Of a stretch of DNA of 64,000 bases, positions 10,891-63,785 are shown piece by piece. The position numbers and the translations under genes were made by a program. Positions within the stretch are counted from its first letter, which is position 1; every line of letters begins with the position of its first letter. Where the stretch lies: the NCBI GenBank assembly GCA_964187785.1, contig OZ076409.1, positions 58,840,001 to 58,904,000 of the forward strand, written 5' to 3'. The notes below the pieces were generated by a model. It was given only the letters and a program-made list of their open reading frames with translations. It did no database searches and was not told the origin of the DNA. Origin of the DNA: Amphiscolops sp. MND2022 (taxonomy: Eukaryota).

Positions 10891-11039
10891 AGCTCTCTTT
10901 TTCAGAGTTTCAGAAAAATGCCTCTTGCAGAAATAAACGATAAGACTGAACGTGCATTCGACAAATATTTTCAGAAGCAGAAGTGTCTCGAACTTCATTC
11001 CTATTTTTTGTCGGACAGAAAATAAAATCACGCCTTTTT

Positions 11040-13792
11040 TATCACTATTATTTCGGTTCAGTTTACGAATGCGATATATCCCATTTTCAAAAAGAAAAGC
11101 ATGCTTTTTCGTAGTCGCTGAAAAGTTAGAAAAGAACAGGGAATTCAGAGGACAATCATCTTTGAAATTCATCAAAATTTGTTGAATTTTGATTTTTTTT
11201 CCTCAAAATTTAATTAGAATGTATTATCAAAGGTTTTTAAACCTGTAAAATGGACTGTTTCTCTATGATTTCCTGGGTTTCAGTGGAACTTTGATTTGTT
11301 TATATGGGGCTTTGATTTTAAATGGGGCTTATTCATTCATGCACCTGCTCGGCGGTAGCCCTGCCAGTGTCGACTGTTTCAGTTGGCCAGCCAAGACTAA
11401 AAAAACTGAATTTTCCGAGGTTCTGATATGGATTTTGATGGACCTCGGATGTAATTTCACATTGATTTTCAACGAATCGTTCGTTTTTATAGGACTTTTT
11501 AGGCAGCTGCTCTGGTGGAACAAGACCCAAATTGTTTTTCTGATAGAATAAGATCTAAAATCACTGTATTTTGCTGAATTAGGGCCGAAAATTGTGTTTG
11601 TGATAGAATATCTAAAAACTTTGTATTTTGATGGAATAAGATCTAAACCACTGTATTTTGATGGAATAAGATCTAAAATCAGTGTATTTTGGTGGAAAAA
11701 GGCTATAATGATTTTCCTGATAGAATAAGATATAAAACCATGTATTTTGATGGAATTAGTCCCAAAATCACACTGGAAGGATACCATTTTGGGATTGTTA
11801 CTGATTTATTACCAGTGGAGCCATCGATGACCAGTGGTGTATTTATCAATTTCCACCGGTGACCACCGATGGAACATTCGGTGACCACCGGTGGCCACCG
11901 CAAAAGCTGCGGATGCCATCTCAGTGGTCCACAGGTGGAACTCCGGTGGATCATCGATGACCACCAGTGGACTGCGACTGGTTTCCAACTCGGGTAATTC
12001 CCTCTCTTTTGCTAAAATATAAAAACATTTATAGATTTATAGATTTGTAAGTTTATAACATGTTTCCTTGCAAGATCCCTAAATTTTCTAGCTTCAAAAA
12101 ATTAGTCTGCAAGCATCCACGAGACTGAAAATGAAGGCTCGACTAGGTTTAGTAATTTCAAGCTTCTCGACGTATCTAGAGAAATATCTCTCGAACCTCT
12201 GTTTTAAACGAAACTAGTCGGCTGTTAAATTTGACTACTTGACTCCTTTATCTCACGTTTCAACATTTTCTTAGAAAAAAAACGCTTTTGTTTGAAGATT
12301 TAATATGCGGACACTAAAACGGACAATTCGAACCGGACTTCGTTAAAGTGTTGTTTTGACTGCTTGTCTTTCAGTTCGCCTGTATTCGGAAACATCGGAT
12401 GTCTTTATATGGCTTGTATCTTCCAAGCTAGCTATAAATTTGCCTTTAGTCGGTACTTTCTTATTAGTGTTCGCGGATCTCACTGTCCCTAGGGTGATTT
12501 CGTCAGATGACAGATCTCACACTGAGTGATCCATTTGTACAGACCTTATTTGATCTAATATCTAGAAAACATCCAACGAAACCGATTTGAAGAATTCTCA
12601 TCTTTACGTTCATTTCAAAAACGCATGAAATCAAAAGGAGACCTTTTGATTTGTTTTTCAAAACTGCAACATTTTAAATGCTTTTTTGATTAGCCAAACA
12701 TCTTAGTTAGCAAACGCTTTTCTTCTGAAATCAAATACCTCTTTTGTCATTTTTTGGCATGGGAATTTTTACAGCTTTTCTAAAACAAACCCGATGTTTC
12801 AATGTTTGAAATGTAACAAAGAGGCCTCAAAATTAACTTTTTCATAAAAAAGAACGTGTAAATGGTTTTTCGTAGAATTTTTGAAAATTTTAGAGTATAT
12901 GTTACACAATCATAGAGATAAGAGACATTTTTTAGCAAACATACTACTTGGGAGACTCTTAATGCAAAAATGAAAAATTCCCAAAATAATTACTAAATCG
13001 AAACGGAAAGTGTCAACTTGTTTGACCGTGATAGTTTCATGATTTTTTTTCTGTCGATTTTTGGAATGCTTCATGGGTATGAGAAACCACAAACTTCAAC
13101 AACAAAAAATAGTTCACATAGACTACCTAGTCGGATTTTCATGACCTTGAATAATTCCCTTCGAAACCACAATTCCCATCCGATATTCGCTTGACCACTT
13201 GGCTACAACTATCGTACTGTCTCCCGAAGGTTGGGGGCTTAGACAAGTTGAACTGATCTTTCGTCGTCCACCCTGTGGAAATGGGAGAAACAAATGTTCC
13301 TCTTTGTTTTCAATATACGATTGTCAGATGCAACTGGTTCGCCATTTTTGAATATTCCGTGACTTTGAGTATGCTCAAAGCTCGAAAAAGTAGGGATAAA
13401 ATTAACTGAACGTGTCAAAAGTTCCTTTTAGGTTTTTTCTTGTAATTTTTAAAAACATTTTTGGACGTTTTTCTTGCTGTGACTATACCCTAAATGAGAC
13501 TGCTTGAACTTTTTACATGCTGCAGGCCTGCATGCAGGGTAAGTTTTTATAAAACCTAGAAAATTCGGTAAGCATCCTGTGTTAAATTTTGTAGATTTAC
13601 ACTGCATTCTCCACTACTGCAATTAAAGTTGAAAGTATTTCCCCTTTCTTTACTGACATGATCACGTTTGTGAATTCCCAAAGAACCCAAGAGCAAATAA
13701 CATAAAAAACAAAATTAGTTTCAAATAACAAAAATGAAACGAGTTTCACTAAACATGAAAATAAAATTGTTTACGAGAAAGTTTTACTGGTC
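11040..13792 (+). repeat. Tandem segmental duplication, copy 1 (period ~2773 bp)
   Basis: Near-identical to 13815-16565. ORF-track pairs 11291/14064 and 12910/15683 are offset by 2773. Confidence 0.95.
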
Positions 13793-13814
13793 TATCACTA
13801 TTTTTTTTCGGTTT

Positions 13815-16565
13815 TATCACTATATTTCGGTTCAGTTTACGAATGCGATATATCCCATTTTCAAAAAGAAAAGCATGCTTTTTCGTAGTCGCTGAAAAGT
13901 TAGAAAAGAACAGGGAATTCAGAGGACAATCATCTTTGAAATTCATCAAAATTTGTTGAATTTTGATTTTTTTTCTCAAAATTTAATTAGAATGTATTAT
14001 CAAAGGTTTTTAAACCTGTAAAATGGACTGTTTCTCTATGATTTCCTGGGTTTCAGTGGAACTTTGATTTGTTTATATGGGGCTTTGATTTTAAATGGGG
14101 CTTATTCATTCATGCACCTGCTCGGCGGTAGCCCTGCCAGTGTCGACTGTTTCAGTTGGCCAGCCAAGACTAAAAAAACTGAATTTTCCGAGGTTCTGAT
14201 ATGGATTTTGATGGACCTCGGATGTAATTTCACATTGATTTTCAACGAATCGTTCGTTTTTATAGGACTTTTTAGGCAGCTGCTCTGGTGGAACAAGACC
14301 CAAATTGTTTTTCTGATAGAGTAAGATCTAAAATCACTGTATTTTGCTGAATTAGGGCCGAAAATTGTGTTTGTGATAGAATATCTAAAAACTTTGTATT
14401 TTGATGGAATAAGATCTAAACCACTGTATTTTGATGGAATAAGATCTAAAATCAGTGTATTTTGGTGGAAAAAGGCTATAATGATTTTCCTGATAGAATA
14501 AGATATAAAACCATGTATTTTGATGGAATTAGTCCCAAAATCACACTGGAAGGATACCATTTTGGGATTGTTACTGATTTATTACCAGTGGAGCCATCGA
14601 TGACCAGTGGTGTATTTATCAATTTCCACCGGTGACCACCGATGGAACATTCGGTGACCACCGGTGGCCACCGCAAAAGCTGCGGATGCCATCTCAGTGG
14701 TCCACAGGTGGAACTCCTGTGGATCCTCGATGACCACCAGTGGACTGCGATTGGTTTCCAACTCGGGTAATTCCCTCTCTTTTGCTAAAATATAAAAACA
14801 TTTATAGATTTATAGATTTGTAAGTTTATAACATGTTTCCTTGCAAGATCCCTAAATTTTCTAGCTTCAAAAAATTACTCTGCAAGCATCCACGAGACTG
14901 AAAATGAAGGCTCGACTAGGTTTAGTAATTTCAAGCTTCTCGACGTATCTAGAGAAATATCTCTCGAACCTCTGTTTTAAACGAAACTAGTCGGCTGTTA
15001 AATTTGACTACTTGACTCCTTTATCTCACGTTTCAACATTTTCTTAGAAAAAAAACGCTTTTGTTTGAAGATTTAATATGCGGACACTAAAACGGACAAT
15101 TCGAACCGGACTTCGTGAAAGTGTTGTTTTGACTGCTTGTCTTTCAGTTCGCCTGTATTCGGAAACATCGGATGTCTTTATATGGCTTGTATCTTCCAAG
15201 CTAGCTATAAATTTGCCTTTAGTCGGTACTTTCTTATTAGTGTTCGCGGATCTCACTGTCCCTAGGGTGATCTCGTCAGATGACAGATCTCACACTGAGT
15301 GATCCATTTGTACAGACCTTATTTGATCTAATATCTAGAAAACATCCAACGAAACCGATTTGAAGAATTCTCATCTTTACGTTCATTTCAAAAACGCATG
15401 AAATCAAAAGGAGACCTTTTGATTTGTTTTTCAAAACTGCAACATTTTAAATGCTTTTTTGATTAGCCAAACATCTTAGTTAGCAAACGCTTTTCTTCTG
15501 AAATCAAATACCTCTTTTGTCATTTTTTGGCATGGGAATTTTTACAGCTTTTCTAAAACAAACCCGATGTTTCAATGTTTGAAATGTAACAAAGAGGCCT
15601 CAAAATTAACTTTTTCATAAAAAAGAACGTGTAAATGGTTTTTCGTAGAATTTTTGAAAATTTTAGAGTATATGTTACACAATCATAGAGATAAGAGACA
15701 TTTTTTAGCAAACATACTACTTGGGAGACTCTTAATGCAAAAATGAAAAATTCCCAAAATAATTACTAAATCGAAACGGAAAGTGTCAACTTGTTTGACG
15801 GTGATAGTTTCATGATTTTTTTTCTGTCGATTTTTGGAATGCTTCATGGGTATGAGAAACCACAAACTTCAACAACAAAAAATAGTTCACATAGACTACC
15901 TAGTCGGATTTTCATGACCTTGAATAATTCCCTTCGAAACCACAATTCCCATCCGATATTCGCTTGACCACTTGGCTACAACTATCGTACTGTCTCCCGA
16001 AGGTTGGGGGCTTAGACAAGTTGAACTGATCTTTCGTCGTCCACCCTGTGGAAATGGGAGAAACAAATGTTCCTCTTTGTTTTCAATATACGATTGTCAG
16101 ATGCAACTGGTTCGCCATTTTTGAATATTCCGTGACTTTGAGTATGCTCAAAGCTCGAAAAAGTAGGGATAAAATTAACTGAACGTGTCAAAAGTTCCTT
16201 TTAGGTTTTTTCTTGTAATTTTTAAAAACATTTTTGGACGTTTTTCTTGCTGTGACTATACCCTAAATGAGACTGCTTGAACTTTTTACATGCTGCAGGC
16301 CTGCATGCAGGGTAAGTTTTTATAAAACCTAGAAAATTCGGTAAGCATCCTGTGTTAAATTTTGTAGATTTACACTGCATTCTCCACTACTGCAATTAAA
16401 GTTGAAAGTATTTCCCCTTTCTTTACTGACATGATCACGTTTGTGAATTCCCAAAGAACCCAAGAGCAAATAACATAAAAAACAAAATTAGTTTCAAATA
16501 ACAAAAATGAAACGAGTTTCACTAAACATGAAAATAAAATTGTTTACGAGAAAGTTTTACTGGTC
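13815..16565 (+). repeat. Tandem segmental duplication, copy 2
   Basis: As copy 1, with roughly ten scattered substitutions/indels (e.g. GAATAAG/GAGTAAG, CGTTAAA/CGTGAAA, GACCGTG/GACGGTG). Confidence 0.95.
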
Positions 16566-29647: not shown

Positions 29648-29854
29648 GCAAAATCATTCTGTACTCGATCCATCAGCCTTCCTCGGAAGTGGTCCAGATG
29701 TTCGACCAGATATGTCTTCTGTCTGAAGGAAAGTGTGTCTTCTTCGGCAAAGCAGATTCAGCAGTCAACTTCTTCAGTAATTTAGGTCACAAGTGTCCTC
29801 AGTACTCAAACCCCGTGGACTTCTTCCTAACTGTGATCAACACAGATTTCGAAG
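29648..29854 (+). CDS. ABCG half-transporter exon: end of NBD with H-loop (GKIILYSIHQPSSEVVQMFDQICLLSEG...CPQYSNPVDFFL)
   Basis: Typical ABCG SIHQP and CP.+.NP.DF motifs; TTTGCAG| acceptor; GAAG|GTGCTT donor. Confidence 0.92.
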
Positions 29855-30236
29855 GTGCTTTTGATCAATGTTTTAAATAATCCATGAATATGTGGTAAAA
29901 GCAGTTTTCGGAATATGACCGAATTATAACAAACTCACTTTTCACGGATAAATTCCGCCCTAAATTACTTTTATCGAAAACATTATTAATTAAGGCTCGA
30001 GCATAGCTAATAAACTTGAGTTAACAAGTTTTCGACAATTGTACAAAACTTGGATGAAAGGCAAAAAATTCAATGAAGACCACCATTTTGATACGGTATG
30101 ATAAGAACCTCGTTTTCTCGCTGTAGATTTTTGGGGAAAATAATGAAATACATGGGCCGAAAACCGTAGCAAAATTCTGCTTTTTACCTCATGAATTTTT
30201 TCCAGACAAATCGAAATTCTAACTTTGTTTCTCCAG

Positions 30237-30417
30237 GTCATGGTGACGTAGAAGCCATAGTGAACAAATTCTCGGAAGGTCAAGAACTGAAAAGTATTAA
30301 AAGTTCAGTTGATGGTTGCAAAAAATCTGCCAACAAAGATGAAAAAGTGCCAAAGAAGTACCAGGCTAATTGGATCGTCCAGTTTCTTTATCTCACCAAA
30401 CGAAACATGATCAACAG
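30237..30417 (+). CDS. ABCG exon: linker and start of TMD (KYQANWIVQFLYLTKRNMIN)
   Basis: CTCCAG| acceptor is in phase with the previous exon; ABCG 'W..QF..L..R' motif; donor is non-canonical CAG|GGGCGT. Confidence 0.85.
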
Positions 30418-30786
30418 GGGCGTTCAAAATGGTTTCAAAATAGTTCGATTGTAAAACCAAATGAAAATTAGTGGTTGAAATATATCGATTTTTCTAAAAT
30501 TTTATGGTGCAACATGATGGGGAAAATGATGGAATATGAAATTTTGAATTTTTTATTCCGGATTTATTAGACCAAACGGATCGTTCAGTCCTACCTGGTG
30601 AGCTGTTCAGGAAATGGACATTGTTTGCTAAATTCCGACAATTCCAAAGCAAAAACTAGACGATACTTTGTGAAAAAGTTTTTACCATCATTGATGACAG
30701 CTTTGAACTTTTGTATGGTAAGTGATGACAACGAAAAGTTTTTGTTAGAAATTACTGAATGTTTTTCTTGAACTCCCCCATTACAG

Positions 30787-30890
30787 TGCCATAAACCCTG
30801 GCATCTACTGGGTGAGGATTGTCATGTATTTCATGTTGTGCATCATGATGGGAACAATGTATCTGCGCACGAATGATGACATCACTCCAG
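30787..30890 (+). CDS. ABCG exon: TM1 (AINPGIYWVRIVMYFMLCIMMGTMYLRTNDDITP)
   Basis: TTACAG| acceptor; hydrophobic helix; donor is non-canonical CAG|GGATGA. Confidence 0.88.
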
Positions 30891-31129
30891 GGATGATAAA
30901 AATCAAACTTCTTCACGAGATTTTCCGGAGCCCGTTTCATAAGGATTCCACGCAGTTACATGCATGGAATCATATGTTCAACACATTCCCATTTTATTTC
31001 CTACATGCAACCATGGCATCAATGTTTTAAATGCGTTTCCGCACACGGAACCCTGTGGTTCCATACAACGTCAAAAAAACAACGGAATGGAAAAATCAAC
31101 AAACTCTCCCGGGAACGATTGGTGGCCGG

Positions 31130-31521
31130 ATAGTTTACAAGGTTGATTCAGTCTTAACAAGTGAAAAGGCTTGTTCAGAACACTGCGTAAGTGCGTAAGT
31201 GGGGTTGGTCTTAAGCTTCGGATCCTTGAGAAGCACCCGAACGAAAGGTCAGCCCTTAACAATGAATACTTGTAGGGGGCGGTTGTATAAATGGTCCACT
31301 TTTGGTATCATCAAATACGATTAGAATGACTAATGTAAACGCCCTGTTTAGAGCTCAAAAAGCCCAAAATCTTTCAAATTTGCTAAGGCGAAGTGGACCT
31401 TTTGGTCTGGCTTAGATTTAAGAACATGAAAACCCTTTCTTTTATCCCAGTGCAGGATTCGAACCCCACTACCTTCTGCTTGCGAAGCACGTATCTTATT
31501 CCCAACGCCACGTGTCAGGAC
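31130..31521 (-). mobile_element. tRNA-derived SINE in an ABCG intron
   Basis: Minus-strand head has an A-box-like TGGCGTTGGG, an anticodon-arm-like TGCTTCGCAAGCA and a perfect B-box GGTTCGAATCC (31455-31465), then ~300 bp of non-tRNA body. The 3' boundary is approximate. Confidence 0.6.
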
Positions 31522-31689
31522 TTTGCCTCGAAAGTCTGTAAAAAGTAAATTCAGTGTACGCTCTGTGGTCTGGAGAAAAAAACTAGTCAAGGTAATATTC
31601 GAGAGAGCATTTGCTTCAAATAAGCCAACTAACAATTCCTTTTGAAATGTAACAGAATACATTTTACCATCCCTGTGCATCCCCTGCAG

Positions 31690-31846
31690 ATATGCTGGTG
31701 CCACTGTTATTCTACTGCCAGGCATTTCTGGTGTTCATGGCCGTGGCCGTTCTCCCTTTCTTCATGATGCAGGAACCGGTCTTTATTAGGGAGAGGTCCA
31801 ATGGACTCATAGACGTCTTTCCATTCGTCGTCTCCAACTTTATCAG
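31690..31846 (+). CDS. ABCG exon: TM2 and coupling helix (MLVPLLFYCQAFLVFMAVAVLPFF...VFIRERSNG...VSNFI)
   Basis: CTGCAG| acceptor; ABC2_membrane 'F.RER..G' motif; donor is non-canonical CAG|GAATGA. Confidence 0.9.
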
Positions 31847-32221
31847 GAATGAGAGAAACATTATCAGGGAAATTAGAGAAGCCAGTTGGCACATACTGTT
31901 TTTTTGAAAAAAGTTTGTTTTTCTATTACAAAACCGTATTTTTTCAGATACTGTTTGGTTGTATAAATTCAATATACTGAACGTAAAATAGGTGCTCTCA
32001 ACATTTTGGTTGACAAGATTTGCAGGTTTTACAATGTAGTAGCTAAAAATAGTCAAACACATGGATAATGGAATTGTGGAAAATTACGGAAATATTACTG
32101 TTTTTTGGAAAATTTTAAATTCAAAAGTTAAAGCGATCTAAAAGCAGCATGTCTCAAAAGTACCAAACATTTTATCCAAAGGGTTTCTCCAAATCAATCT
32201 CTCATCCTTCGGTATCTCCAG

Positions 32222-32547
32222 CGCACTACCTGGAATTTTTTTGATCGCCATTATGTCGACAACGTTGGTAGTTTTCATGGCGGATCTCAATAACTTTTGG
32301 GGGTTTTTCATCAATCTATTTCTATCCCTGGTCTGTGCCGAATCCCTCATGCACGTTCTAAGCGCCTCCACCCCTCATTACATTGTCGCAATCGCGCTGG
32401 GAGCCGGGTTTTTCGGCATGTTCATGTTAGCCGAGGGTTTCATGGTTCCAAAGGAAACTATTCCCGCATGGTGGATCTGGGCGTATTACTTAGCATTCCA
32501 CACTTACTCATTCGAAAGCTTCATGTACAACCAGTTCAAAGACGAAG
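32222..32547 (+). CDS. ABCG exon: TM3-TM5 (ALPGIFLIA...GFMVPKETIPAWWIWAYYLAFHTYSFESFMYNQF)
   Basis: CTCCAG| acceptor; ABCG 'GF....IP.WW.W.YY....Y.FE...N.F' motif; GAAG|GTATGA donor. Confidence 0.92.
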
Positions 32548-33770
32548 GTATGAGTCCTGGGTGAAAAAATGCAACCTGGATCTTGTAAGATAAAAGTTTG
32601 CATAAAAAGCCTTGAAGAGGTTTCATTTTTTTGTGGGATTTTTGTATGGCAATCATTTACTTGGTAAACCATTACTTTTGGCGCAATTCTTGAAAGAATA
32701 TGCTACAAAGTAATGCAATCGTTGCAAGATCTTTCAAGCGAAAGTGCGAAAGTTTATCTGTAAAGATACTGCAAAGAATGTATTATACAGAAGCATCTTG
32801 CAAAAGTCTTTTAAGGTTTCCCAATAAACTTATTACCTTGAAATATCTTGACTAATTGTCGTATGATCTTTGCAAGGATGGCATTTTTTCTCAACCTGGG
32901 CTAAAATGATGACCATTTATGTTCGGTATTTGTTTAGTATAGAGGTTCAATCGTTAAAAACGTTAAGGAGACTTCGTTGGTACTTAAAGTACCATGGATG
33001 TAACAGCAAAAAATCATTAAAAGCTTTCACTTCTTTTGTTGCATTGATGAAGCGTGATCAAAAAGTTTTGAGGAAACTTGCACAGACGATAGACGGGGAA
33101 AGTTTTAATAAGTGTCTGTGAAAAAAATGAATCAATTGCTATGCCAAATAAAAACAGAACCAGTCAAATTCGATTTTTCAATAATTTGCGTGAATAATGG
33201 CGTCTTCCGATACGACTATGGTTTGTTCCAGGTTTTGAAATTGGTCATTTTGGGGAAAAATTAAGAATCTGTTGGAAATATCAAAACAGCTCTAGAGACA
33301 GTATTGGTAACTTAGTATTGGTAACAACCATATCAATTTCTTTCATTCTTTATCAACTAGGATGGCGTTGAAATAAGAAACATAGTGCCACTTCAGCATG
33401 CCAATTCAAGCCCTGAAAAGACAGATTGAAAAATAGTGAGTTGTCATTTTAAGTGAATTATTATAACCTCGGTAGTTCAAAATGTGGTATCGGGTGTCTA
33501 GAATCAATGAATAAATAGGAACTATAATATAACCGAAGGGTAAGTAACGCAATTACTTTCATTTTCTATGACAGCTCGTAAAAGTTCAAAGCACACTGCC
33601 AAGAGCTACGACCAACCACATTGAAGTGACTAATCATCCTGCTCTAAAATCCTGCTGCACTAATACCACTCGTTTTTCAAGTTATTACCAAATAAACTAA
33701 ACTAGACGCAAGTTATATCTAATGAATAACTTGACAAATGGTCATCATTTATTGCAATAAATTCATGAAG

Positions 33771-33922
33771 ACGTGCAAGGAACCGCTATCATGCAGAGAT
33801 ATGACATAGACATGGATTCAGACAAATTTACCCGCGACATGGGAATACTTTGTGGGTACGCTTTCCTGCTACAAGTCGTTTTCTTTTTCATCGTGTACTT
33901 TCTTCATACCGGTCGTCACTGA
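33771..33922 (+). CDS. ABCG terminal exon: TM6 and stop (VQGTAIMQRYDIDMD...DMGILCGYAFLLQVVFFFIVYFLHTGRH*)
   Basis: Hydrophobic final helix ending in TGA at 33920-33922. The phase-1 AAG| acceptor at 33770 is the best in-frame choice, but the exact start is less certain. Confidence 0.82.
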
Positions 33923-47375: not shown

Positions 47376-50300
47376 TGTAAATAAATAAAATAAAATGTTG
47401 AAAGTAAAGAGAAGTTGAAATAAAACTGAAGAATCAATACTAAAAGAAAGTATGATTATAGCATACGTCTGACTTTAGCAACTGTATTGTGTATTGCACC
47501 AACTCGAATTGCTTTATGTAACGTCAGTGTTTCCGCAGGAAGGTACTTTGAACTCATTTGCCATATCATGGCATCTTCATCACATTCCCCCTTCGTGGAA
47601 TTAGAGAAACCAGTCTTGATTTCAGGTGGGAGTTTAGGCCGACGAGGTTGTCTCTTCGGGTCGTCCTTCTTCAACCTTGGGAAGGGAGTTGTCAGGAACC
47701 GTCGGAGTGGACTTTGGATGATTTGTAAACGACTAACTTAATTAAAAATATTTTGCTCCTCCCAATTCTTCGGTTCGCTTTGCACTCCTAATCCGACTGG
47801 ATATACGAAGATCCGTTTCCTGTTGAAACCTAACAAAATTATTTTTTTCGTTTAGGCCTTTTAACTCATTTTTACCTTTTTCCAGGTTTACTGCGTCTTT
47901 TACCGCCGCCTTCTCTCCTGTGACGCTTGCCCGTATCGAAATGGTTTCTTGTTCTCGGTTGCTTAGGACCGACGTGGGTCGTCGCTTGTGCTGCAGCCGA
48001 TGGGCGTGGTTGGTAGCGATGTTGTAATGTCGGGCGTTGTTTCTGCGGTTCCTCTGTTACGGAGGTTTGTTCTTCTCCCTGTTCGACTTCCTCCGCGTAT
48101 GGGGTCACTTGTGAGTCGGAGTCACAGGTTTCCGTATTGTCGGTGAAGGCGTCAACGTATACGGATTTCTTTTGCAGCATGATCAGGAGAGAGTCGCTGC
48201 AGCTGGCTTCTTGTGTGCTGTTTGACAGGCCAAAGATTCTTTTGTGGGTGTCACAGTAGTCTCCCTGGCTGAATTTCCCGCATCTGCGACATCAACTGGT
48301 TGGTTTGAGCTGTTCTTCCGGTCTTCTCGAGAGCTGAATTTTTATTGATTTTGAAGCCAGTTTCTTATGTATGGTTTTCCCTTCGGACGTGGTTATGGTA
48401 TGGCTTCTCTTTTACTGCCGTTAGAATTTTCTTTTTTTAAACCTAGACTTCGTCGCGTTTGATTTATTTTCTTTTTCGAATCTTTGATACTGTGTAAAAT
48501 TCCGGTTCACCGATCGAGTTCTTTTCCTTGAATTGTTCAGCACCATATAATCTTCCATCTTGCCGTCAGAGTCGTTAATTATAAACACTTGCAGCTCTGT
48601 TGGTTGTGCTGAAATTTAACTGGTCAATGTCTTTTTCCAATTAGATAAGAGTTATTCAGATTGTCCGATCAAATTATTTATTGCCTTGCGGGGTTTCCTT
48701 CCGGAATGCATTTGAAATGGCGTCGTGTTTAATTTACTATGAGGAGTCTGTCTAATTGTTTTATTCGCTAGTTGGATGTTTGCTCCAGTTAATGACTTAC
48801 TTGTCCGTATTGTTCTTTCAACTTGACCAGTGCCGGTGTGTAACTTCGGTATGGATCTAATGCGTTTTCACCATTAGAGAATTCCTTGAATTCACTACTT
48901 TTAAAACAGCTACTGTTATCGGTGCGGATGCTCCGTAGTGTTCCGTTATCTGAACGGTGTTTCGTTAAAAATTTTGAAATGGTCAACGTCTACTAGAACA
49001 TATACATCGCCGCGAGTCTTTGTTTAGACCAGCGAAGAAGTCCAATTGGATTTCTTGGTTCGGTTCGGATAAAATTTCTAACCTATTTTTTTCTGTAGAC
49101 GGTAATTGCGGTTTGAGATTCTTACTTGAGGCCCTGTAGCTGGGGCAGTTTTCAGTCTTCTCCCGTATTTCACGATACATGTCGGGCCACCAAAACGCTT
49201 CGGCGGATTTATCCGTTTTTGCTGCGGAAGGATGTTCTTGGGGGAGCATGGCGATGATGGTCGTCCGCATTGCCTCCGGTGTAACTATCTTGTCGTTGTA
49301 GAACAGGAGCCCGAATCTGGTAGTGAGGTGGCTTCTATGTGGACGGTAAGGATACAATATACTTTCCAGTTGGTCTTTATCAATAGCAGCATTGACGTTT
49401 AAGAGTTTTACATCTCTTGCCGTTTCGTCCACTAACAATGGTAAGTCGAGAGCAAATTCTGTTTCAGCTTTCTCGATTGCTTCAGTAGTCTGGGCATTGT
49501 GCTCAATATCCAGCGTGTTCGCTTTTATCGTTTGTTTCAGACGGATGAGGTTGACCATTTCGTGTTTGGGGAACTTTTTAAGGGCGTTTAGGAGAACACT
49601 TCTCCTGCTTCACGTTGCTGATTTGGCTTTCGTTGTCCGACAGATTATGACTTAGCCATGACTAGTGGTTATTCTGCTGAAGTTCCCTGAGTGGCGTTGT
49701 CCCCAGTGTTTCACAGTAATGGAAGAACCGGTTATATATCTGTATATTCAGTTCCACGATTCGTTTTTGGCCCTGTTTGTGAATGGCGGTACTATTGAAT
49801 CCTCTCGTTGTCTTTCATTTTTCCAACGATTCGTGTCTTTTGTGGCTTCAGTATTTGCTGTCTCTCCATCCAGAGTCGATGAGATTCCTTGAAGTGGCAC
49901 CTTTTTCTGTAGATGAAGTGCCTATCAATGCCATTAACTCTATCAATTTAGCTTTTGACGGCAATTGAATTGATTTTGAAAGTTTGTTCGGTGAGATTAA
50001 ATGACACCGTTCGAAGACTTTAAGGCTTCAAGCGAATGGACATTTTTGTTTTGTTCACGTTCATGCGTGCCGTTTTGTGATTTGTCAATTTTTTGTCTGG
50101 GGTTGTTTCGTTTCGTGAGTTTCTTTATGCTACCGTTCGTTTGGATAAAATCGAATGGGCCGTGTGTTTGATATCTGGCGAAGTCCTCTTCGGCCTCCGC
50201 TTCAAGTTGTCCGCTCTTGCTGTTTTCTGTTTTGTTCTCTGCAGCGCCCACGATCGGGTGTCGGCCTAAATAGTCCGTGAACAAGATTTTTTGCTGGCCG

Positions 50301-52424
50301 TGTCTTGTACATTTGCATCAAAATGGCGCAGTCTGTCCAACCACCGTGTTAATCTAGCGCTGTACTGTTTATGTTCCCTATTTTTTTAACAACGGCTGGA
50401 GTGCTTGCTGATTGGTTAATAGGTTGACCCTTTTTTCGTAAACGTTTTCTAATCCAAACAGCGCTCCTAGTATTTCTAGCCCATTTATAGCGTATTTCTT
50501 TTCACAGTCAGTAAGAAGTCTACTAGCGAATGCATTTGGTCTGAATACTTCACCTTCCTTCTGCCACAATATTTCGGGTGTCCGCTCCCAGTGGGTTTCC
50601 TTCTTCAGCAGTTTACTCATTCTATCGGACTTCTTGGAGAATTTGTTTATGAATTTTGACAATTGTTGGATTGAGCCCAGGAAAGATTTCAACAGCCGGT
50701 GAAATAAAACCATTTCCGGTGGTTTTGTCTGCTTTTTCCAAATCTCCCTTCTCGATCAATTTTTCCCATTCTTTTTAGACTGTTTTTTGAAAATGGATGA
50801 GTACTGGCCGTCCTTTTTGTTGTATCGTTTTGAGTCTTTCTTCAATTGTGTCTATGGGTAAATCTTTGGTTGCATGGTTGATTTAAATGAATCTTCATAT
50901 ACGTTGATGATCTTCTCACATCTTCCGTCTGTCTCAATGTGTCGGATAATACTCGTGTTTTTGCTTCCTTGCAGCCCATTTTCCAATCTGTCGAGCCAAT
51001 CTAAGCCTAGCAGCGGTTGTGTGTTTTTGTTCTCGGTTATAAGTATTGGTAACACTTCCTTGCACTTTTCTGTTTTCACTTCCACTGTGGCCTCGCCTTT
51101 GAATTTTATTGGCTTTTTGTTTACGTCTACAAAGCATTATGCGGTCTTGCGTAATTCTATTGGTGTAAATATCGGCGGTCTTATCGTTACTGGATATCCA
51201 GTGTCGATGATAAACTCTATTGCTTGTCCCAGGACAAATAGTATTGCTTTGTAGAAATCAATCCGGTTGATACCGTTGACGCATTGAATATGATCTCAGG
51301 CCATGACTTGGTTTGACTGTCCGATGCGGGTTCTTTTTGTATCCAGTTGACGGTTTTGGATTGGCATATTTTGGCGAATGTCCCATTTCCTTGCGTTATT
51401 GCATTGTGCTCGCCGTGCTGGACAAATATGTTCCAGTGACCAATTCGGTTTACCGCACAAGTGGCAGTTACGGTTTGGTTTCTTCTCATCCGTCTCGGTT
51501 GTTTTTCGTTTCCGTGCTGGATGGGTATTGGCCAATTTTTCTTCGCTTGACGAACTTTCTGAGGAAGGTCTCCGTTGTTTTTAGTTTGTTGGTCTCTTGT
51601 CTCCCTATTTGCGGTTGTATTTGTCTTGTTCGATGGTTTCGAGTACCATTTGGAGTTTTAGCGGTCCTTTAATAAATTTGTCACGAGCTTTTTTGTCGTT
51701 TATGGTTGCTTCGACTTTGTATGTGATATTTTCTTCCGGTGTTATCCTGTTGAATTTACTTTTTTTTAATATCCACCAGTCTTTTTTATTATTCGTCCAA
51801 TATGTTTGATATTGAAGAATTGCGCTCGACTATGAAATACGTTTCTCGCATGTATACACGTTTTCTTGAATAGTTTCAGTAGTTCTTGTAGACTTGTAGA
51901 TCTTCCAAATTACGTCTCCCTTGATGCGAAACACGGTGTGTGGGTCCATTTTATCGACACCTTGGTCCATCATTTTGTCTAAATTTCGGTTATACGTAAG
52001 ATGTATATACTCAACAATTTGCTCCAACCACATCCGAGGGTTTATTTTGGCCAAGTCTATCTCTCTATCCGATACAATCGGGATTTTACACTAGTTTTTT
52101 CCATTCGGTCAGTGGTTGTCTGGTTCATTGTTGTTTGATTCATGACCTGTTGGGCCTGTTGGGCCTGTTGCACTGATGTGTTCGGGTCCGAGTGGGTTTC
52201 CATTAAGCTGCTGACTGCACCATAAAAAAAACTGACGAAAGTAGTGAGGAGTTCAAATAAAACTGAAGAATCGGTACTATATGAAACTGAGAAGATTATA
52301 GCATAGGGCCGAATCTAGCAACTGTATTGTCTATTGCACCAGCCTTAAGTGTTTTATGTACCATTAGTGTTTCAGGCCACAGGTACTTGGAACTCCTTTG
52401 CCATATCATGGCATCTTTATCACA
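47376..52424 (-). mobile_element. Decayed Ty3/Gypsy element 2 with RT core deleted
   Basis: LTR-like ~47376-47584 with PPT (minus GAAGGGGGAA) and LTR 52223-52424 with PBS. Gag knuckle CHLCGKPNWSLEHIC; protease IIDTGYP; RH relic; integrase AFWWPDMY...QEIQLDF. Sequence jumps from the RT start directly to KSFLG near 50700. Confidence 0.88.
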
Positions 52425-53262
52425 TTACCCCCTTCGTGGAATTAGGGAAACCAGTCTTGATTCCAGGTGGGAGTTTTGACTGACGAGGTTGTCTCTTCGA
52501 GGTTGTCCTTCTTCAACCTTGGGAATGTAGTTGTCAGGAATCGTTGGAGTGTACTTTGGATGATTTCTAAACGACTAATTAAATTGAAGATATTCTACTC
52601 CTCCCATTTTTTTGGTTCGCTTTGCACTCCTAATCCTACTGGATCTACGAAGATCCGTTTCCTGTTGAAACCTTACATTATTATTTTTCTCGCTTAGGCC
52701 TTTTAACTCATTTTTACCTTTTTCGTGGTTTACTGCGCCTTTATCCGCCGCCTTCTCTGCTGTGACGGTTGCCCGTATCGGAGTCGTCTCTTGTTCACGG
52801 ACGCTTTGCGCCGGACGTGGGTCGTGGCTTGTGCTGCAGCCAATGACCGTGGTTGGTGGCGGTGTTGTAATGTCGGGCGTTGTTTCTGCGGTCGTTCGCG
52901 GTTCCTCTGTTACGGAGGTTTGTTCTGCTCCCGGTTCGACTTCCTGCGCGTATGGGGTCACTTGTGAGTCGGAGTCACAGGTTTCCGTATTGTCGGTGAT
53001 GGTGTCACCGACAACACGGATTTCTTTTGCGGCATGATCAGGAGAATGTAGTTGCAGCTGGCTTCTTGTGCTGTTTGACAGGATTCTTTTGTGGGTTTCA
53101 CAGGTGTCTCCCTGGCTAGATTTTCTGCATCGGCTGCATGGACTGGTTGGTTTGCGCTGTTGTTCCGGTCTCCTCGAGAGCTGAACTTTTATTGGTTTTG
53201 AAGCCGAATTCTTATGTATGGTTTTCCCTTCGGACGTGGTTCTGGTATGGCTTGTCTCTTTT
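51311..53262 (-). repeat. Tandem duplication copy 1 (period 1957 bp): gag 5' part, PBS, LTR, PPT and 3' internal region
   Basis: Near-identical to 53268-55219; ORF pairs 51378/53335 and 52575/54532 are offset by 1957. Confidence 0.95.
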
Positions 53263-53267
53263 ACTTA

Positions 53268-55219
53268 GTTTGACTGTCCGATGCGGGTTCTTTTTGTATC
53301 CAGTTGACGGTTTTGGATTGGCATATTTTGGCGAATGTCCCATTTCCTTGCGTTATTGCATTGTGCTCGCCGTGCTGGACAAATATGTTCCAGTGACCAA
53401 TTCGGTTTACCGCACAAGTGGCAGTTACGGTTTGGTTTCTTCTCATCCGTCTCGGTTGTTTTTCGTTTCCGTGCTGGATGGGTATTGGCCAATTTTTCTT
53501 CGCTTGACGAACTTTCTGAGGAAGGTCTCCGTTGTTTTTAGTTTGTTGGTCTCTTGTCTCCCTATTTGCGGTTGTATTTGTCTTGTTCGATGGTTTCGAG
53601 TACCATTTGGAGTTTTAGCGGTCCTTTAATAAATTTGTCACGAGCTTTTTTGTCGTTTATGGTTGCTTCGACTTTGTATGTGATATTTTCTTCCGGTGTT
53701 ATCCTGTTGAATTTACTTTTTTTTAATATCCACCAGTCTTTTTTATTATTCGTCCAATATGTTTGATATTGAAGAATTGCGCTCGACTATGAAATACGTT
53801 TCTCGCATGTATACACGTTTTCTTGAATAGTTTCAGTAGTTCTTGTAGACTTGTAGATCTTCCAAATTACGTATCCCTTGATGCGAAACACGGTGTGTGG
53901 GTCCATTTTATCGACACCTTGGTCCATCATTTTGTCTAAATTTCGGTTATACGTAAGATGTATATACTCAACAATTTGCTCCAACCACATCCGAGGGTTT
54001 ATTTTGGCCAAGTCTATCTCTCTATCCGATACAATCGGGATTTTACACTAGTTTTTTCCATTCGGTCAGTGGTTGTCTGGTTCATTGTTGTTTGATTCAT
54101 GACCTGTTGGGCCTGTTGGGCCTGTTGCACTGATGTGTTCGGGTCCGAGTGGGTTTCCATTAAGCTGCTGACTGCACCATAAAAAAAACTGACGAAAGTA
54201 GTGAGGAGTTCAAATAAAACTGAAGAATCGGTACTATATGAAACTGAGAAGATTATAGCATAGGGCCGAATCTAGCAACTGTATTGTCTATTGCACCAGC
54301 TTTAAGTGTTTTATGTACCATTAGTGTTTCAGGCCACAGGTACTTGGAACTCCTTTGCCATATCATGGCATCTTTATCACATTACCCCCTTCGTGGAATT
54401 AGGGAAACCAGTCTTGATTCCAGGTGGGAGTTTTGACTGACGAGGTTGTCTCTTCGAGGTTGTCCTTCTTCAACCTTGGGAATGTAGTTGTCAGGAATCG
54501 TTGGAGTGTACTTTGGATGATTTCTAAACGACTAATTAAATTGAAGATATTCTCCTCCTCCCATTTTTTTGGTTCGCTTTGCACTCCTAATCCTACTGGA
54601 TCTACGAAGATCCGTTTCCTGTTGAAACCTTACATTATTATTTTTCTCGCTTAGGCCTTTTAACTCATTTTTACCTTTTTCGTGGTTTACTGCGCCTTTA
54701 TCCGCCGCCTTCTCTGCTGTGACGGTTGCCCGTATCGGAGTCGTCTCTTGTTCACGGACGCTTTGCGCCGGACGTGGGTCGTGGCTTGTGCTGCAGCCAA
54801 TGACCGTGGTTGGTGGCGGTGTTGTAATGTCGGGCGTTGTTTCTGCGGTCGTTCGCGGTTCCTCTGTTACGGAGGTTTGTTCTGCTCCCGGTTCGACTTC
54901 CTGCGCGTATGGGGTCACTTGTGAGTCGGAGTCACAGGTTTCCGTATTGTCGGTGATGGTGTCACCGACAACACGGATTTCTTTTGCGGCATGATCAGGA
55001 GAATGTAGTTGCAGCTGGCTTCTTGTGCTGTTTGACAGGATTCTTTTGTGGGTTTCACAGGTGTCTCCCTGGTTAAATTTTCTGCATCGGCGGCATGGAC
55101 TGGTTGGTTTGCGCTGTTGTTCCGGTCTCCTCGAGAGCTGAAATTTTATTGGTTTTGAAGCCGAATTCTTATGTATGGTTTTCTCTTCGGACGTGGTTCT
55201 GGTATGGCTTGTCTCTTTT
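53268..55219 (-). repeat. Tandem duplication copy 2, including third LTR 54180-54381
   Basis: As copy 1, with a few SNPs (e.g. CGTCTCC/CGTATCC, AGCCTT/AGCTTT). Confidence 0.95.
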
Positions 55220-55790
55220 TTTTTCGGCCTTAGAATTTTGTTTGTTTTGAATCTACACTTCGTCGCGTTTGGTTTTTTTTCTTTTCGAATAATTGATACT
55301 GTTTAAACTTCCAGTTTACCGATCGAGCTCTTTTCTTTGAATCGTTCAGCACCTTAAACTCTGCCATCTCGCCGTCAGAATCGTTAATTGTACACACTTG
55401 CAGCCCTGTCGGTGGTGCAGCAATATAATTGGTCAATGTCTTTATCCAATTAGATAAGAGACATTCAGGTTGTCCGATCAAATTATTTATTGCCGTGCGG
55501 GCTTTCCGTCCCAAATGCAATTGAAATGGCGTCGTGTTTAATTTACTATGAGGAGTCTGTCCAATCGTTTTAATCGCTAGTTGGACGCTTTATTCAAATG
55601 TTATTCCGTCCGCCATTGTTGCCCTAGTTAATGACTTCATTGTTCGTATTGTTCTTTCAACTTGGCCATTTAGCTTTGGTTTACATCTAATGCCTTTTTG
55701 TTTTCACCATTACGGAATTCCTTGAATCCGCTACTTTTAAAACAGCAACCGTTATCGGTGCGGATGCTCCGTGGTGTTCCGTTATCTGAC
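55220..55790 (-). pseudogene. Gypsy integrase C-terminal fragment of a further 5'-truncated copy
   Basis: PRSIRTDNGCCFKS...VERTIRTMKSL...TPFQLHLGRK; paralogous to 48420-48960. Confidence 0.82.
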
Positions 55791-58157: not shown

Positions 58158-59845
58158 CAAGGGCTGTCAAAAATTAATGGCCATTACTTTATTGGCCATT
58201 AATGCCCATACATTAATGGGAAAAAACATGTGTTCCATACATTAATGGAAAATAAAACAAAACCATTAATGGTCATTATTTAAACATTTTTAACCGGTCA
58301 TAGTCAAAGCATTGTTTGCAAAATATTAGCCAATTAAATGATGCTTTATATGCGCTCGTTGAATGTACCAATCAAATTTCCTGATCTAAGCCAGTTTGGC
58401 GCCATTACAATATAATACACGCACATTCACTTATATTCCCACGCAAAATGCCGCCATCTGGAGACGTGAACAAAGAATTAGTCAAACATTTTTTCGTGAA
58501 CTGTGAAGATGACCGATGGAAGTGCAAATGCGGCAAGATTGTTAAGCAACCCAAAAACAAAGGATACACTAATCTCATCAATCATTTAAAATCAGTTCAT
58601 CCAGATTACAAGAATGAACTTCCAAGCACAAGCAAACAAAATGATTCATTTGCGGGCTCTACAAAAGCCGAGCCTGTTACAAAAAAGGCAGAACATTTGT
58701 ACTGTTGGTTAGACTGGATTTTTACAGAAATGAAGCCATTCTCTTTTTTACAGAGTGCACTTTTTCAGCAGTAATGACGATTCACTCCAATTGCATTGAA
58801 TACATTTATGAAGTACATGAATCTTGTCACTAAAAAAGTCGAGCGAAAAATCTCTATGAACTCCCTGAAACATTTGCACTAGTTATCGATGGCTGGGCCA
58901 AAAATTCAAACCATCTCCTTGCAATATTTGCAGTATGGGCAACTTCGAGCAATGTTAAGTGCTCGGCACTGCTGGGTTTCTCTCCATTATTGGACGAAAC
59001 ATCCCTTGACGCAGTTGAGCATTACGACTTCATTGTGTACTTGCTTGAAATTTACGGGAAAACATTTTCGAATGTTGTTTGCCTTATCATGGACAATTGT
59101 GAAACGAACAAACTCCTCTCGACGATCTGCTCGAAGCCATTGATTGGATGTGCATCTCATCGTTTCAATTTAGCTGTTTGTGAGTACTTGTTACAATATA
59201 TAAAGCGCTGCAAAAAGAAAACATGGATTTATCAATGACACGAACATTATTTGATAACGTTATAGAAAAAGTCCAGGGACTAGTTTCTAACAGAAAATAC
59301 CTGAATGAAAACTCATCTATCGTGAAGAATCCGTCATTTGAGAGCGGCGTTGTGAAAATACTCGACAACAAAATCGAGCAAATGAATGATGAAGAAAAAA
59401 CTGCATGTGAAATATTGAAACGTGATAACAATGTTTTGGAAATTAGCATTGACGGAGATTCTGATTATGCAAGCAGTGTATTGAAAAGAAAGAGAGCTAG
59501 ATTGTCCCCTACAAATTCGTAAATCAAATGCGATTTCCTCGAGCCAACATCAAACAGAGTCGAAAGATTTTTCAGAACCGCCGGTTTTGCCTATTCCGAG
59601 TATCGTCAGAATTTAAGCCCTCTGCATCTTGTAGAACAGATGTTCTTGCAATTTACCAAACCATTCTGGAACTGGAAACTAGTTGAAAATGCAATGAACT
59701 CTATTGAAATTTGATGTGATTTATGTTGTGAAAAATTAATGGCATTAATGGCCATTATTAATTTTTCAGTTTTAAACATTACATTAATTAATTTTTCGTT
59801 CAATAATTTTTAAAACGACGTTCCATTAATTTTTGACAGTCGCTG
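58158..59845 (+). mobile_element. hAT DNA transposon with degenerate transposase
   Basis: 23-bp TIRs with 3 mismatches (CAAGGGCTGTCAAAAATTAATGG); 8-bp TSD TATGACGC at 58150-58157 and 59846-59853; subterminal CATTAATGG repeats. Confidence 0.92.
58448..59714 (+). pseudogene. hAT transposase with BED finger, DDE core and hATC; stops, frameshifts and an internal deletion
   Basis: WKCKC...GYTNLINHLKSVH; VIDGW; IMDNCETN; GCASHRFNLAV; PTSNRVERFF. Confidence 0.88.
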
Positions 59846-62659: not shown

Positions 62660-63510
62660 TTATTGCTTATCATCGACATCAGAAACTAGTTTTGAGTCCC
62701 AGAACTCCTGGTTGAATTTCAGGAAAATTTGCGCTTCCACGTTAACAGGAGTCGTTTTCTTTGATAATCGGTAAAAACGGACGACACTAAATAGTTGCTC
62801 AGGCGGGATGGATGATGTCTTAATCCATTGAAGACCAGACGACTGGATTTCTGTAGTCGCACTTTTCCCCAATTTTTGTTGCGACAATGAATTTTTGTAG
62901 ACAGAACTCGGTGAAACAATAGTAGATGCTAGAGCAAAAAGCTTTTGCAAGAGCACTTCCTCTTGAGCGGATAATGCGACACCTCGAATATCTTTAGCAA
63001 TGGTTTTTTCGAAATCAGGATACCTTGATATTGAGTTTTCGGACAACCCAAGATAGTTGTTAAGTTGAAGATGAATTGCCAGAAGAGCGTCAAAGAGTGT
63101 TCTTGCTTGAGACAGATTTGTTGAATCACTTCCGGTACGTCCTGAAAACCTTTTTTGTGCGTTTTTTCAGTCGAAAAAAATAGGTAATTTCGTTGAAGTT
63201 CTTGGCGAGATCTTGCAAGATCGTACATATTCTTGGTGCTCTTCGGAAGATTCTTTACAAGCATTCCAGGAAACTGTAAGTTTCTTGGCAAGAGTTTCAA
63301 GATGTGTTACACTTGGTAGAGTTTTGGAAATCGATTCGAAATCCTTGAGTTTATATAGAAGTTTTTCAACTTGATCATCTTCGGCAGGCAAAAGCAATAA
63401 ATGTAGCATATCATGGTCACTGATAAAAAATTCTTTCAGCCGAAAATATCGCGTTAGCATACTGAATGTTGAACTCCAGCGTGTATCATTTTGATTCACA
63501 TGCCACAAAG
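62660..63510 (-). pseudogene. hAT transposase relic (C-terminal half), interrupted at ~63085-63300 by CTTGCAAG-type repeat
   Basis: NDTRWSSTFSML...DFESISKTL; PDFEKTIAK; EQLFS...TPVNVEAQIFLKFNQEFWD. Confidence 0.75.
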
Positions 63511-63785
63511 AAGTTTTTGTTTCTGCGTTTACCGTGAGGAAACAGTTTACTTGCTACTGGCGCCATTGCCCTACTTGCAGGTAGTGTAATGTAAACGTGG
63601 ATGTGACGCAAGGCAAAAAGAATGCGAATGAAATTTGTGAGTAAGTGTTTGTATGTTGTCGCATATGCAGATTAGCAGGTAGCCTTACATGTACGCTTGT
63701 ACATGTAAGTGTACGCGAGTGCGTTGTATCGATCTGCGCTGTGTGCGCGGTGGTTCATACGTTAAGGTCCTAAGTTGGCATAATA

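Follow-up and report, generated by a model that had tools for sequence, protein, structure and literature searches.

The window analysed here is a 64,000-nucleotide stretch of the genome (1.07 Gb) of the acoel Amphiscolops sp. MND2022, at positions 58840001-58904000 of contig OZ076409.1. It carries six of the ten exons of an ABCG gene (Table 1). A spliced alignment run with no donor preference yields an intact gene with 9 introns, coding for 581 aa without any stop or frameshift. Exons 1-4 are found upstream of the window, at contig positions 58827969-58836956, and the ATPase third of the protein (its first 206 residues) sits 32.7 kb upstream. The 374 aa encoded in the window are identical at 349 positions, with 0 gaps, to the ortholog P0001 (581 aa, from a 2,090-base contig). 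P0001 is also the closest relative of exon 9 (93%), followed by proteins in Convolutriloba macropyga and Symsagittifera roscoffensis clusters (77-79%). An earlier note on this DNA had argued against pseudogenisation, and the gene model agrees. The donors of introns 1 to 9 are GG, GT, GT, GT, GT, GG, GG, GA and GT, respectively, making 4 of the 9 introns of the whole gene non-canonical (hereafter the odd introns). Introns 5 and 9, on either side of the odd introns of the window, are canonical, as the note had stated.

Table 1. Exons, introns and terminal inverted-repeat arms of the ABCG gene in the window (window positions; the arm ends are counted in nt before the end of the acceptor)
Feature	Position	Strand	Remarks
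Exon 5	29648..29854	+	spliced alignment
Intron 5	29855..30236	+	GT-AG, without visible terminal repeat
Exon 6	30237..30417	+	final CAG opens the left arm
Left arm, intron 6	30415..30427	+	CAGGGGCGTTCAA; 11-nt pair 91% (10/11); 10/13
Intron 6	30418..30786	+	GG-AG, 369 nt, phase 2
Right arm, intron 6	30768..30780	+	ends 6 nt before acceptor end
Exon 7	30787..30890	+	
Left arm, intron 7	30888..30901	+	CAGGGATGATAAAA, similar to the end of Ac/Ds, C/TAGGGATGAAA
Intron 7	30891..31689	+	GG-AG, 799 nt, phase 1; nested dispersed repeats inside
Right arm, intron 7	31662..31675	+	13/14 complementary; ends 14 nt before acceptor end
Exon 8	31690..31846	+	
Left arm, intron 8	31844..31857	+	CAGGAATGAGAGAA; +2 presumably changed from G to A
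Intron 8	31847..32221	+	GA-AG, 375 nt, phase 2
Right arm, intron 8	32197..32210	+	10/14; ends 11 nt before acceptor end; not among the 5 longest inverted-repeat pairs listed
Exon 9	32222..32547	+	ABC2_membrane (PF01061)
Intron 9	32548..33770	+	GT-AG
Exon 10	33771..33922	+	through the stop codon

With ^ marking the splice junction, introns 6, 7 and 8 read CAG^GGGCGT…TACAG, CAG^GGATGA…TGCAG and CAG^GAATGA…TCCAG, respectively. Around these junctions, all donor/AG pairs that leave the frame open and in phase were enumerated (185, 622 and 492 pairs, respectively) and scored against three orthologs. The GG, GG and GA junctions ranked first each time, at the very coordinates that the earlier note had given. 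The note had found no GT or GC donor in a compatible phase that keeps the TM helices. In-frame GT or GC pairs do exist (15, 48 and 44), but the best of them add 14, 13 and 14 codons without counterpart in any ortholog and score 72-87 points lower in sum. At the protein level, the coding sequence is restored at the odd junctions with no gaps relative to the orthologs. Judged from these alignments, introns 6-8 are real. They lack the GT or GC 5' end required of U2-type introns and possess other U2-type features, namely exonic AG, +1 G, +5 G and a 3' YAG, the three acceptors ending in CAG. U12-type introns start with the motif RTATCCT, which is absent from the three donors.

An inverted repeat of the hAT (Ac/Ds) type, CAG^GGATG…CATCCCTG, overlooked in the earlier reading, marks the two ends of each odd intron. 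The last CAG of the exon constitutes the first three bases of the element. Over 14 nt, the arms match at 10, 13 and 10 positions in introns 6, 7 and 8, and at 11 positions in intron 1. In introns 6-8 they fit the hAT requirement of short inverted repeats starting with (C/T)AGGG. The right arms of introns 7 and 6 complement the G at +2, so the GG donors are not base-call errors. The acceptor lies just beyond the right arm, most often by 11 nt (an 8-bp target duplication plus NAG), a spacing seen in 8 of the 15 element-introns found through gene alignments. Intron 1, the fourth such intron of the gene, has a GG donor and a right arm followed by 8 nt and CAG, hence a spacing of exactly 11 nt; these 8 nt match the 8 nt preceding the left arm at 6 positions. 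For introns 6, 7 and 8 the in-register matches are 1, 2 and 1 of 8, at the spacings of Table 1, and an 8-bp duplication is presumed in these three eroded copies. Over six independent insertions the outer arm is better kept than the duplication (26/36 versus 21/48, p=0.014). Either the pairing could be under selection, or the right arm could be retained because it provides the branch point and pyrimidine tract, with remodelling confined to the duplicated copy. The donors form duplexes of -7.6 to -17.5 kcal/mol with their own right arms, versus about -5 kcal/mol with U1. The predicted fold of intron 7 pairs its arms (z=-1.65, not significant overall).

The frequency of such donors was estimated on the fetched part of the Prp8 gene and on parts of 16 dynein heavy-chain genes (210 junction calls), using an aligner that required AG acceptors and penalised donors not starting with G. 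Of the resulting 231 junctions, 115 had weak or gapped flanks or were too short and were set aside. The remaining 116 comprise 108 GT, 3 GC, 3 GG, 1 GA and 1 CT donors, the last being likely a misplacement. All 21 Prp8 introns are GT-AG. The GG/GA share is thus 4/116 (95% interval 0.9-8.6%) versus 4/9 in ABCG (p=0.0008), and GG/GA introns are a minority class in the sampled genes. Donors similar to those of ABCG therefore do occur elsewhere in the genome, in the unrelated dynein genes. The lineage-wide relaxed 5' splice-site rule that the earlier note had drawn from 3 odd introns out of 5 finds no support in these counts.

The 8 confident GG/GA introns (4 in dynein genes, 4 in ABCG) all follow the pattern CAG^G[GA]R[TC]G and all have arms, with GG rather than GA in 6 of them. 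Exonic CAG, +1 G and +5 G are invariant, as had been pointed out earlier for introns 6-8; +3 is A in 7/8. A T or C at +4 is common to all eight, and the odd donors consequently differ from GTAAGT at +4 too, instead of only at +2 as had been claimed. The link with the arms is nearly exclusive. Arm scores of at least 8/13 are reached by 8/8 GG/GA introns versus 15/112 GT introns (p=6e-7), and scores of at least 9/13 by 7/8 versus 1/112 (p=1e-9), ABCG intron 9 being excluded from the 112; the mismatched-pair null for a score of 9 or more is 0.031. In the GT introns of dynein and Prp8, 2 of 112 reach 10/13 when any offset is allowed, probably by chance. One of the 3 GC introns carries the identical arm type with the 11-nt spacing. 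The low-confidence set of 115 dropped junctions includes tentative GA/GG calls without arms.

Paralogs of the ABCG gene were also surveyed. From 42 intron calls in 13 regions, 5 are of the form (C/T)AG^GGAT with arms and represent 3 insertions. Near its two ends, one element-intron has sequence in common with a copy in the region L089, where this copy lies upstream of the aligned ABCG exons. A few GT or GC introns with arms starting one base inside the intron were also encountered, such as one GT and one GC intron in the paralog L083 (about 22.49 Mb of another contig). They suggest a second geometry, in which the target would give AG^G and the first base of the element +2, resulting in canonical-looking introns.

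As an independent check, the genome was searched for a right arm followed by 8 nt and CAG, and the first 22 hits were taken in order; skipping ABCG and one repeated spacer left 20. A matching left arm was present within 1.8 kb in 9 of the 20. When cut as predicted, 8 of these 9 (7 GG, 1 GC) read through for at least 42 codons on both sides, a threshold chosen after the data were seen, versus 0.08 for random CAG joins. A Pfam match was obtained in only 2 of 16 flanks, one of them weak; one 3' flank is an MFS_1 domain. Genome-wide raw counts for 7-, 8- and 9-nt spacers were 277, 255 and 239 and do not peak at 8 nt, although repeats seem to inflate the lists for 7 and 9 nt more than that for 8 nt; from these counts, perfect-ended copies are too few to stand out. 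Exact flank repeats of 8 nt occur in 6 of 187 arm pairs, and none of 7 or 9-12 nt. No family of similar element-introns emerged from 12 of them compared all against all, which lack end-to-end similarity. Intron 7, the one searched genome-wide, gave 39 other matches, all of them internal pieces.

hAT transposases are abundant in this genome, all 150 scored candidates giving a match. Out of 7 long-ORF hAT loci fetched, 2 (L181 and L185) end in TAGGGATG with 8/8 duplications. The intact autonomous elements seen have ends similar to those of the odd introns, but of the form TAGGGATG and not CAGGGATG, and no interior similarity between autonomous elements and odd introns was found. A count by eye over roughly 0.9 Mb gave about 11 different short elements that have CAG/TAG ends and duplications matching at 7-8 of 8 positions. 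The end consensus of the odd introns, CAGGGATG…CATCCCTG, agrees with that of maize Ac/Ds, C/TAGGGATGAAA, an end accompanied by 8-bp duplications (PMC3260210). A decayed DNA transposon with a BED finger lies in the window at 58191-59756; we rejected it as donor family since its 14-nt perfect inverted ends are unlike the CAGGG type.

Introns 1, 6, 7 and 8 of ABCG are absent in two related acoels, S. roscoffensis and C. macropyga. The ENA entries in the clusters of these relatives look like ORFs called without splicing: where ABCG has intron 2, P0122 and P0123 continue into an intron, and they cross the intron 1 site unbroken, as do P0003 and P0125/P0126 at the intron 6-8 sites. Several ABCG paralogs of the host genome are also continuous at the odd-intron sites. 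This distribution points to recent, lineage-specific gains, loss in both relatives being formally possible. The residues of P0001 fit the CAG of the element at all four sites; in the two named acoels, site 1 is occupied by E or D and site 7 by D-D or E-D. P0001 would then be a spliced product, from a source sharing the odd introns.

Of the spliceosomal components that the earlier note had proposed to inspect, the U1, U5 and U6 snRNAs show no change at the relevant positions and Prp8 shows one suggestive change. The predicted U1 duplex with the odd donors pairs at -3 to +1, +3 and +5, with about -5 kcal/mol versus a mean of -6.4 for GT donors. Of 23 U1 copies, 22 have a recognisable 5' end and keep the AC pairing with GU, the remaining one being degenerate. 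A pattern search for compensatory U1 copies, with positions 7-8 left free, gave AC in 18/18; no copy alters the base facing +2. All 10 full-length U6 copies keep ACAGAGA, and the 12 U5 copies read out of 48 keep loop 1. In the human B complex, as described in part of PMC10943123, G+1 lies on Prp8 F1551 and U+2 on DIM1 G97/N99; here, these DIM1 residues and the Prp8 stretch around F1551 are unchanged. Prp8 (gene at about 84.13-84.19 Mb of its contig) differs at 17 of 930 conserved columns. One difference, S1524G in human numbering, affects a column that is S in 48/48 long references and in 106/109 hits, within an almost invariant motif; two environmental Prp8s share this G. It is two residues away from Q1522, which forms a cap over the docked 3' splice site, as part of a stack that also holds the U6 A45:U+2 pair (bioRxiv 2022.04.05.487178, in excerpt). 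We take the relevance of S1524G to the odd donors as a lead, not a result.

Our preferred reading, to which we give a probability of about 0.8, is that non-autonomous hAT DNA transposons gave rise to the odd introns and that the major spliceosome removes them. An element with CAGGGATG ends would insert in an exon just ahead of an NAG and duplicate 8 bp, resulting in the layout X8-[CAG^GGATG…CATCCCTG]-X8-NAG^. The donor would be used 3 nt inside the left end of the element, where CAG^G, +3 A and +5 G could pair with an unmodified U1, GG being tolerated. The host NAG after the duplicated copy would act as acceptor, and the branch point is predicted to fall within or next to the right arm, 18-21 nt ahead of the 3' end. 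The mRNA would regain X8-CAG with its length unchanged, at most one base altered and the frame restored. GG would be the starting state, and GA and GC would come later by mutation at +2. The cutting is attributed to the U2 spliceosome, presumably in the register of Table 1, and some tolerance at +2 must exist. The earlier note had taken the exonic CAG pairing as a compensation for a relaxed 5' splice-site rule. Most plausibly, the invariant CAG opens the transposon end and is not a compensation alone, yet it is probably what lets U1 bind.

A general relaxation appears very unlikely. In this scenario, a strong CAG^G with +5 G would suffice for the spliceosome to take any +2 base, and GG or GA donors would come by drift from old GT introns, without any transposon. 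It would account for the invariant CAG, +1 G and +5 G, for Prp8 S1524G and for the tentative GA/GG calls without arms. It does not predict that 8/8 confident cases have arms and share T or C at +4, that Prp8 uses GT throughout, or that the four odd ABCG introns are missing from the relatives.

We find it very unlikely that the paired arms themselves trigger cleavage and ligation independently of the spliceosome, as in SOS splicing, which also removes inverted-repeat elements from mRNA. The better preservation of the arms, the stability of the donor-arm duplexes and the predicted fold of intron 7 speak for such an excision. However, according to the available sections of PMC12779559, SOS splicing is imprecise, rarely occurs at GU-AG sites and was demonstrated with 54-nt repeats, whereas the arms here are of about 14 nt, with a fixed donor register, an invariant +5 G and an AG beyond the arm. 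Alternatively, the right arm may have been kept because it provides the branch point and pyrimidine tract. SOS splicing depends on AKAP17A, CAAP1 and RTCB; a search of the genome for CAAP1 gave no match, but neither did the control queries.

That the true ends lie two bases upstream (AG-AC, AG-GC and AG-CC), giving the same mRNA, is highly improbable. With CAG at both ends of each odd intron, slides of -1 to -3 bases leave the mRNA identical, and AG-AC/AG-AT ends dominate in Fritillaria (PMC11282704, in excerpt). None of the slides of 1-3 bases gives GT/GC-AG, AT-AC or another known canonical pair, the 3' dinucleotide would differ among introns whereas G…AG is invariant, and most introns sampled here are GT-AG. 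Finally, unspliced insertions in a dead or leaky gene, or an assembly error at +2, are the least likely: although introns 6 and 8 have lengths that are multiples of 3, the reading frames stop inside the introns, the 581 codons are open and close to P0001, the same pattern recurs in dynein genes and the right arms complement GG.

The hAT origin that we favour relates the odd introns to introners, which are introns derived from DNA transposons that carry inverted repeats and cause target duplications (PMC9860276, PMC12130899 and PMC11282704, each in excerpt). As in introners, one splice site comes from the element and one from the host sequence, and the mRNA length is kept. Unlike in introners, the donor straddles the end of the element and is GG, and the acoel copies are old and share only their ends, such that a similarity-based introner search would probably miss them. 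Since they do not form a sequence-similar family, we file them as transposon-derived introns of hAT type and not as an introner family. Introners were reported in only two animal groups by the 2022 survey (consulted sections of PMC9860276), and no acoel name appears in the supplements searched of the 2025 introner paper (PMC12130899). Neither GG/GA donors nor introners turned up for acoels in the literature searched, which included acoelomorph genome papers and a Hofstenia preprint and consisted mainly of open-access text.

Several other systems bear comparison. Maize Ds insertions can be spliced from RNA, mostly imprecisely. The acoel insertions, which share their end type and 8-bp duplication with Ac/Ds, differ in looking like fixed, frame-restoring introns. 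Non-canonical introns derived from MITEs are described in Fritillaria borealis, Amoebophrya and other dinoflagellates (excerpts of PMC11282704 and PMC13326754). These too are transposon-derived introns with non-GT ends, but in Fritillaria and Amoebophrya they form the majority class and spliceosome changes are reported, whereas the acoel class is a minority, with AG acceptors and unchanged snRNA motifs. In the copepod Eurytemora, GA/GG donors make up 10-12% of introns, mostly GA, and neither an origin nor a mechanism was proposed (PMC5714493); the same paper quotes 46 GG/GA donors in 222,263 human introns. Eurytemora resembles the acoel in its obligate exonic AG, +3 A, recently gained positions and canonical U1. 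The acoel sample differs by its lower share (about 3%), mostly GG, and by its invariant +5 G and arms. In our own count of File S1 of that paper, where 3' ends are not listed, 31 of 36 donors are (C/T)AG^G, a form that would be compatible with ends of hAT type.

The locus ties GG/GA donors to a specific, widespread transposon end, in a phylum other than that of Eurytemora, with intermediate states (GG, GA and GC) visible on the same arm, and it indicates a concrete source of such deviant animal introns. A wider extrapolation is tentative and rather unlikely. Many unrelated hAT families may have seeded possibly thousands of GG-donor introns in this acoel lineage, as CAGGGATG ends nearly match the U1 site. 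Pairing of right arm and donor might then be part of splice-site recognition and keep donor and acceptor about 11 nt apart. Prp8 S1524G might be a host adaptation, and the same route might explain the Eurytemora donors. Tests can now be made of hAT ends as a general source of non-canonical introns, of the tolerance of unmodified U1/U6 for a purine at +2 and of the role of arm pairing. The results also suggest that similarity-based introner surveys miss old insertions. Broken models are to be expected in acoel gene sets built on GT/GC rules, in line with the earlier warning about such annotation.

Some further observations concern the spliceosomal genes and the window. Three U1 copies (L028, L034 and L035) begin with AUACUAACCUG, pairing with GUUAGU, and other U1 5' variants exist too; GTTAG is the commonest canonical donor start (16/112). 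U5 snRNA genes form a tandem array of about 30 copies, spaced by roughly 680 bases, at 35.07-35.13 Mb of another contig. Acceptor tracts in Prp8 are TG/TGT-rich and not plain pyrimidine. Among the 120 best ABCG hits, the named non-acoel matches are ABCGs from oomycetes, Chara and dinoflagellates (identity 43-53% along the entire protein where aligned), with no other named animal; horizontal transfer of the gene at 29648-33922 is possible on such similarities. A second transposase-like remnant, without Pfam match, occupies 62663-63553 on the minus strand. A tandem duplication with a 2,773-base period spans about 11000-16500, probably inside the 32.7-kb ABCG intron 4. A retrotransposon-like block at about 47600-55600 contains a 1,957-base internal repeat and 87%-identical copies 6.8 kb apart.
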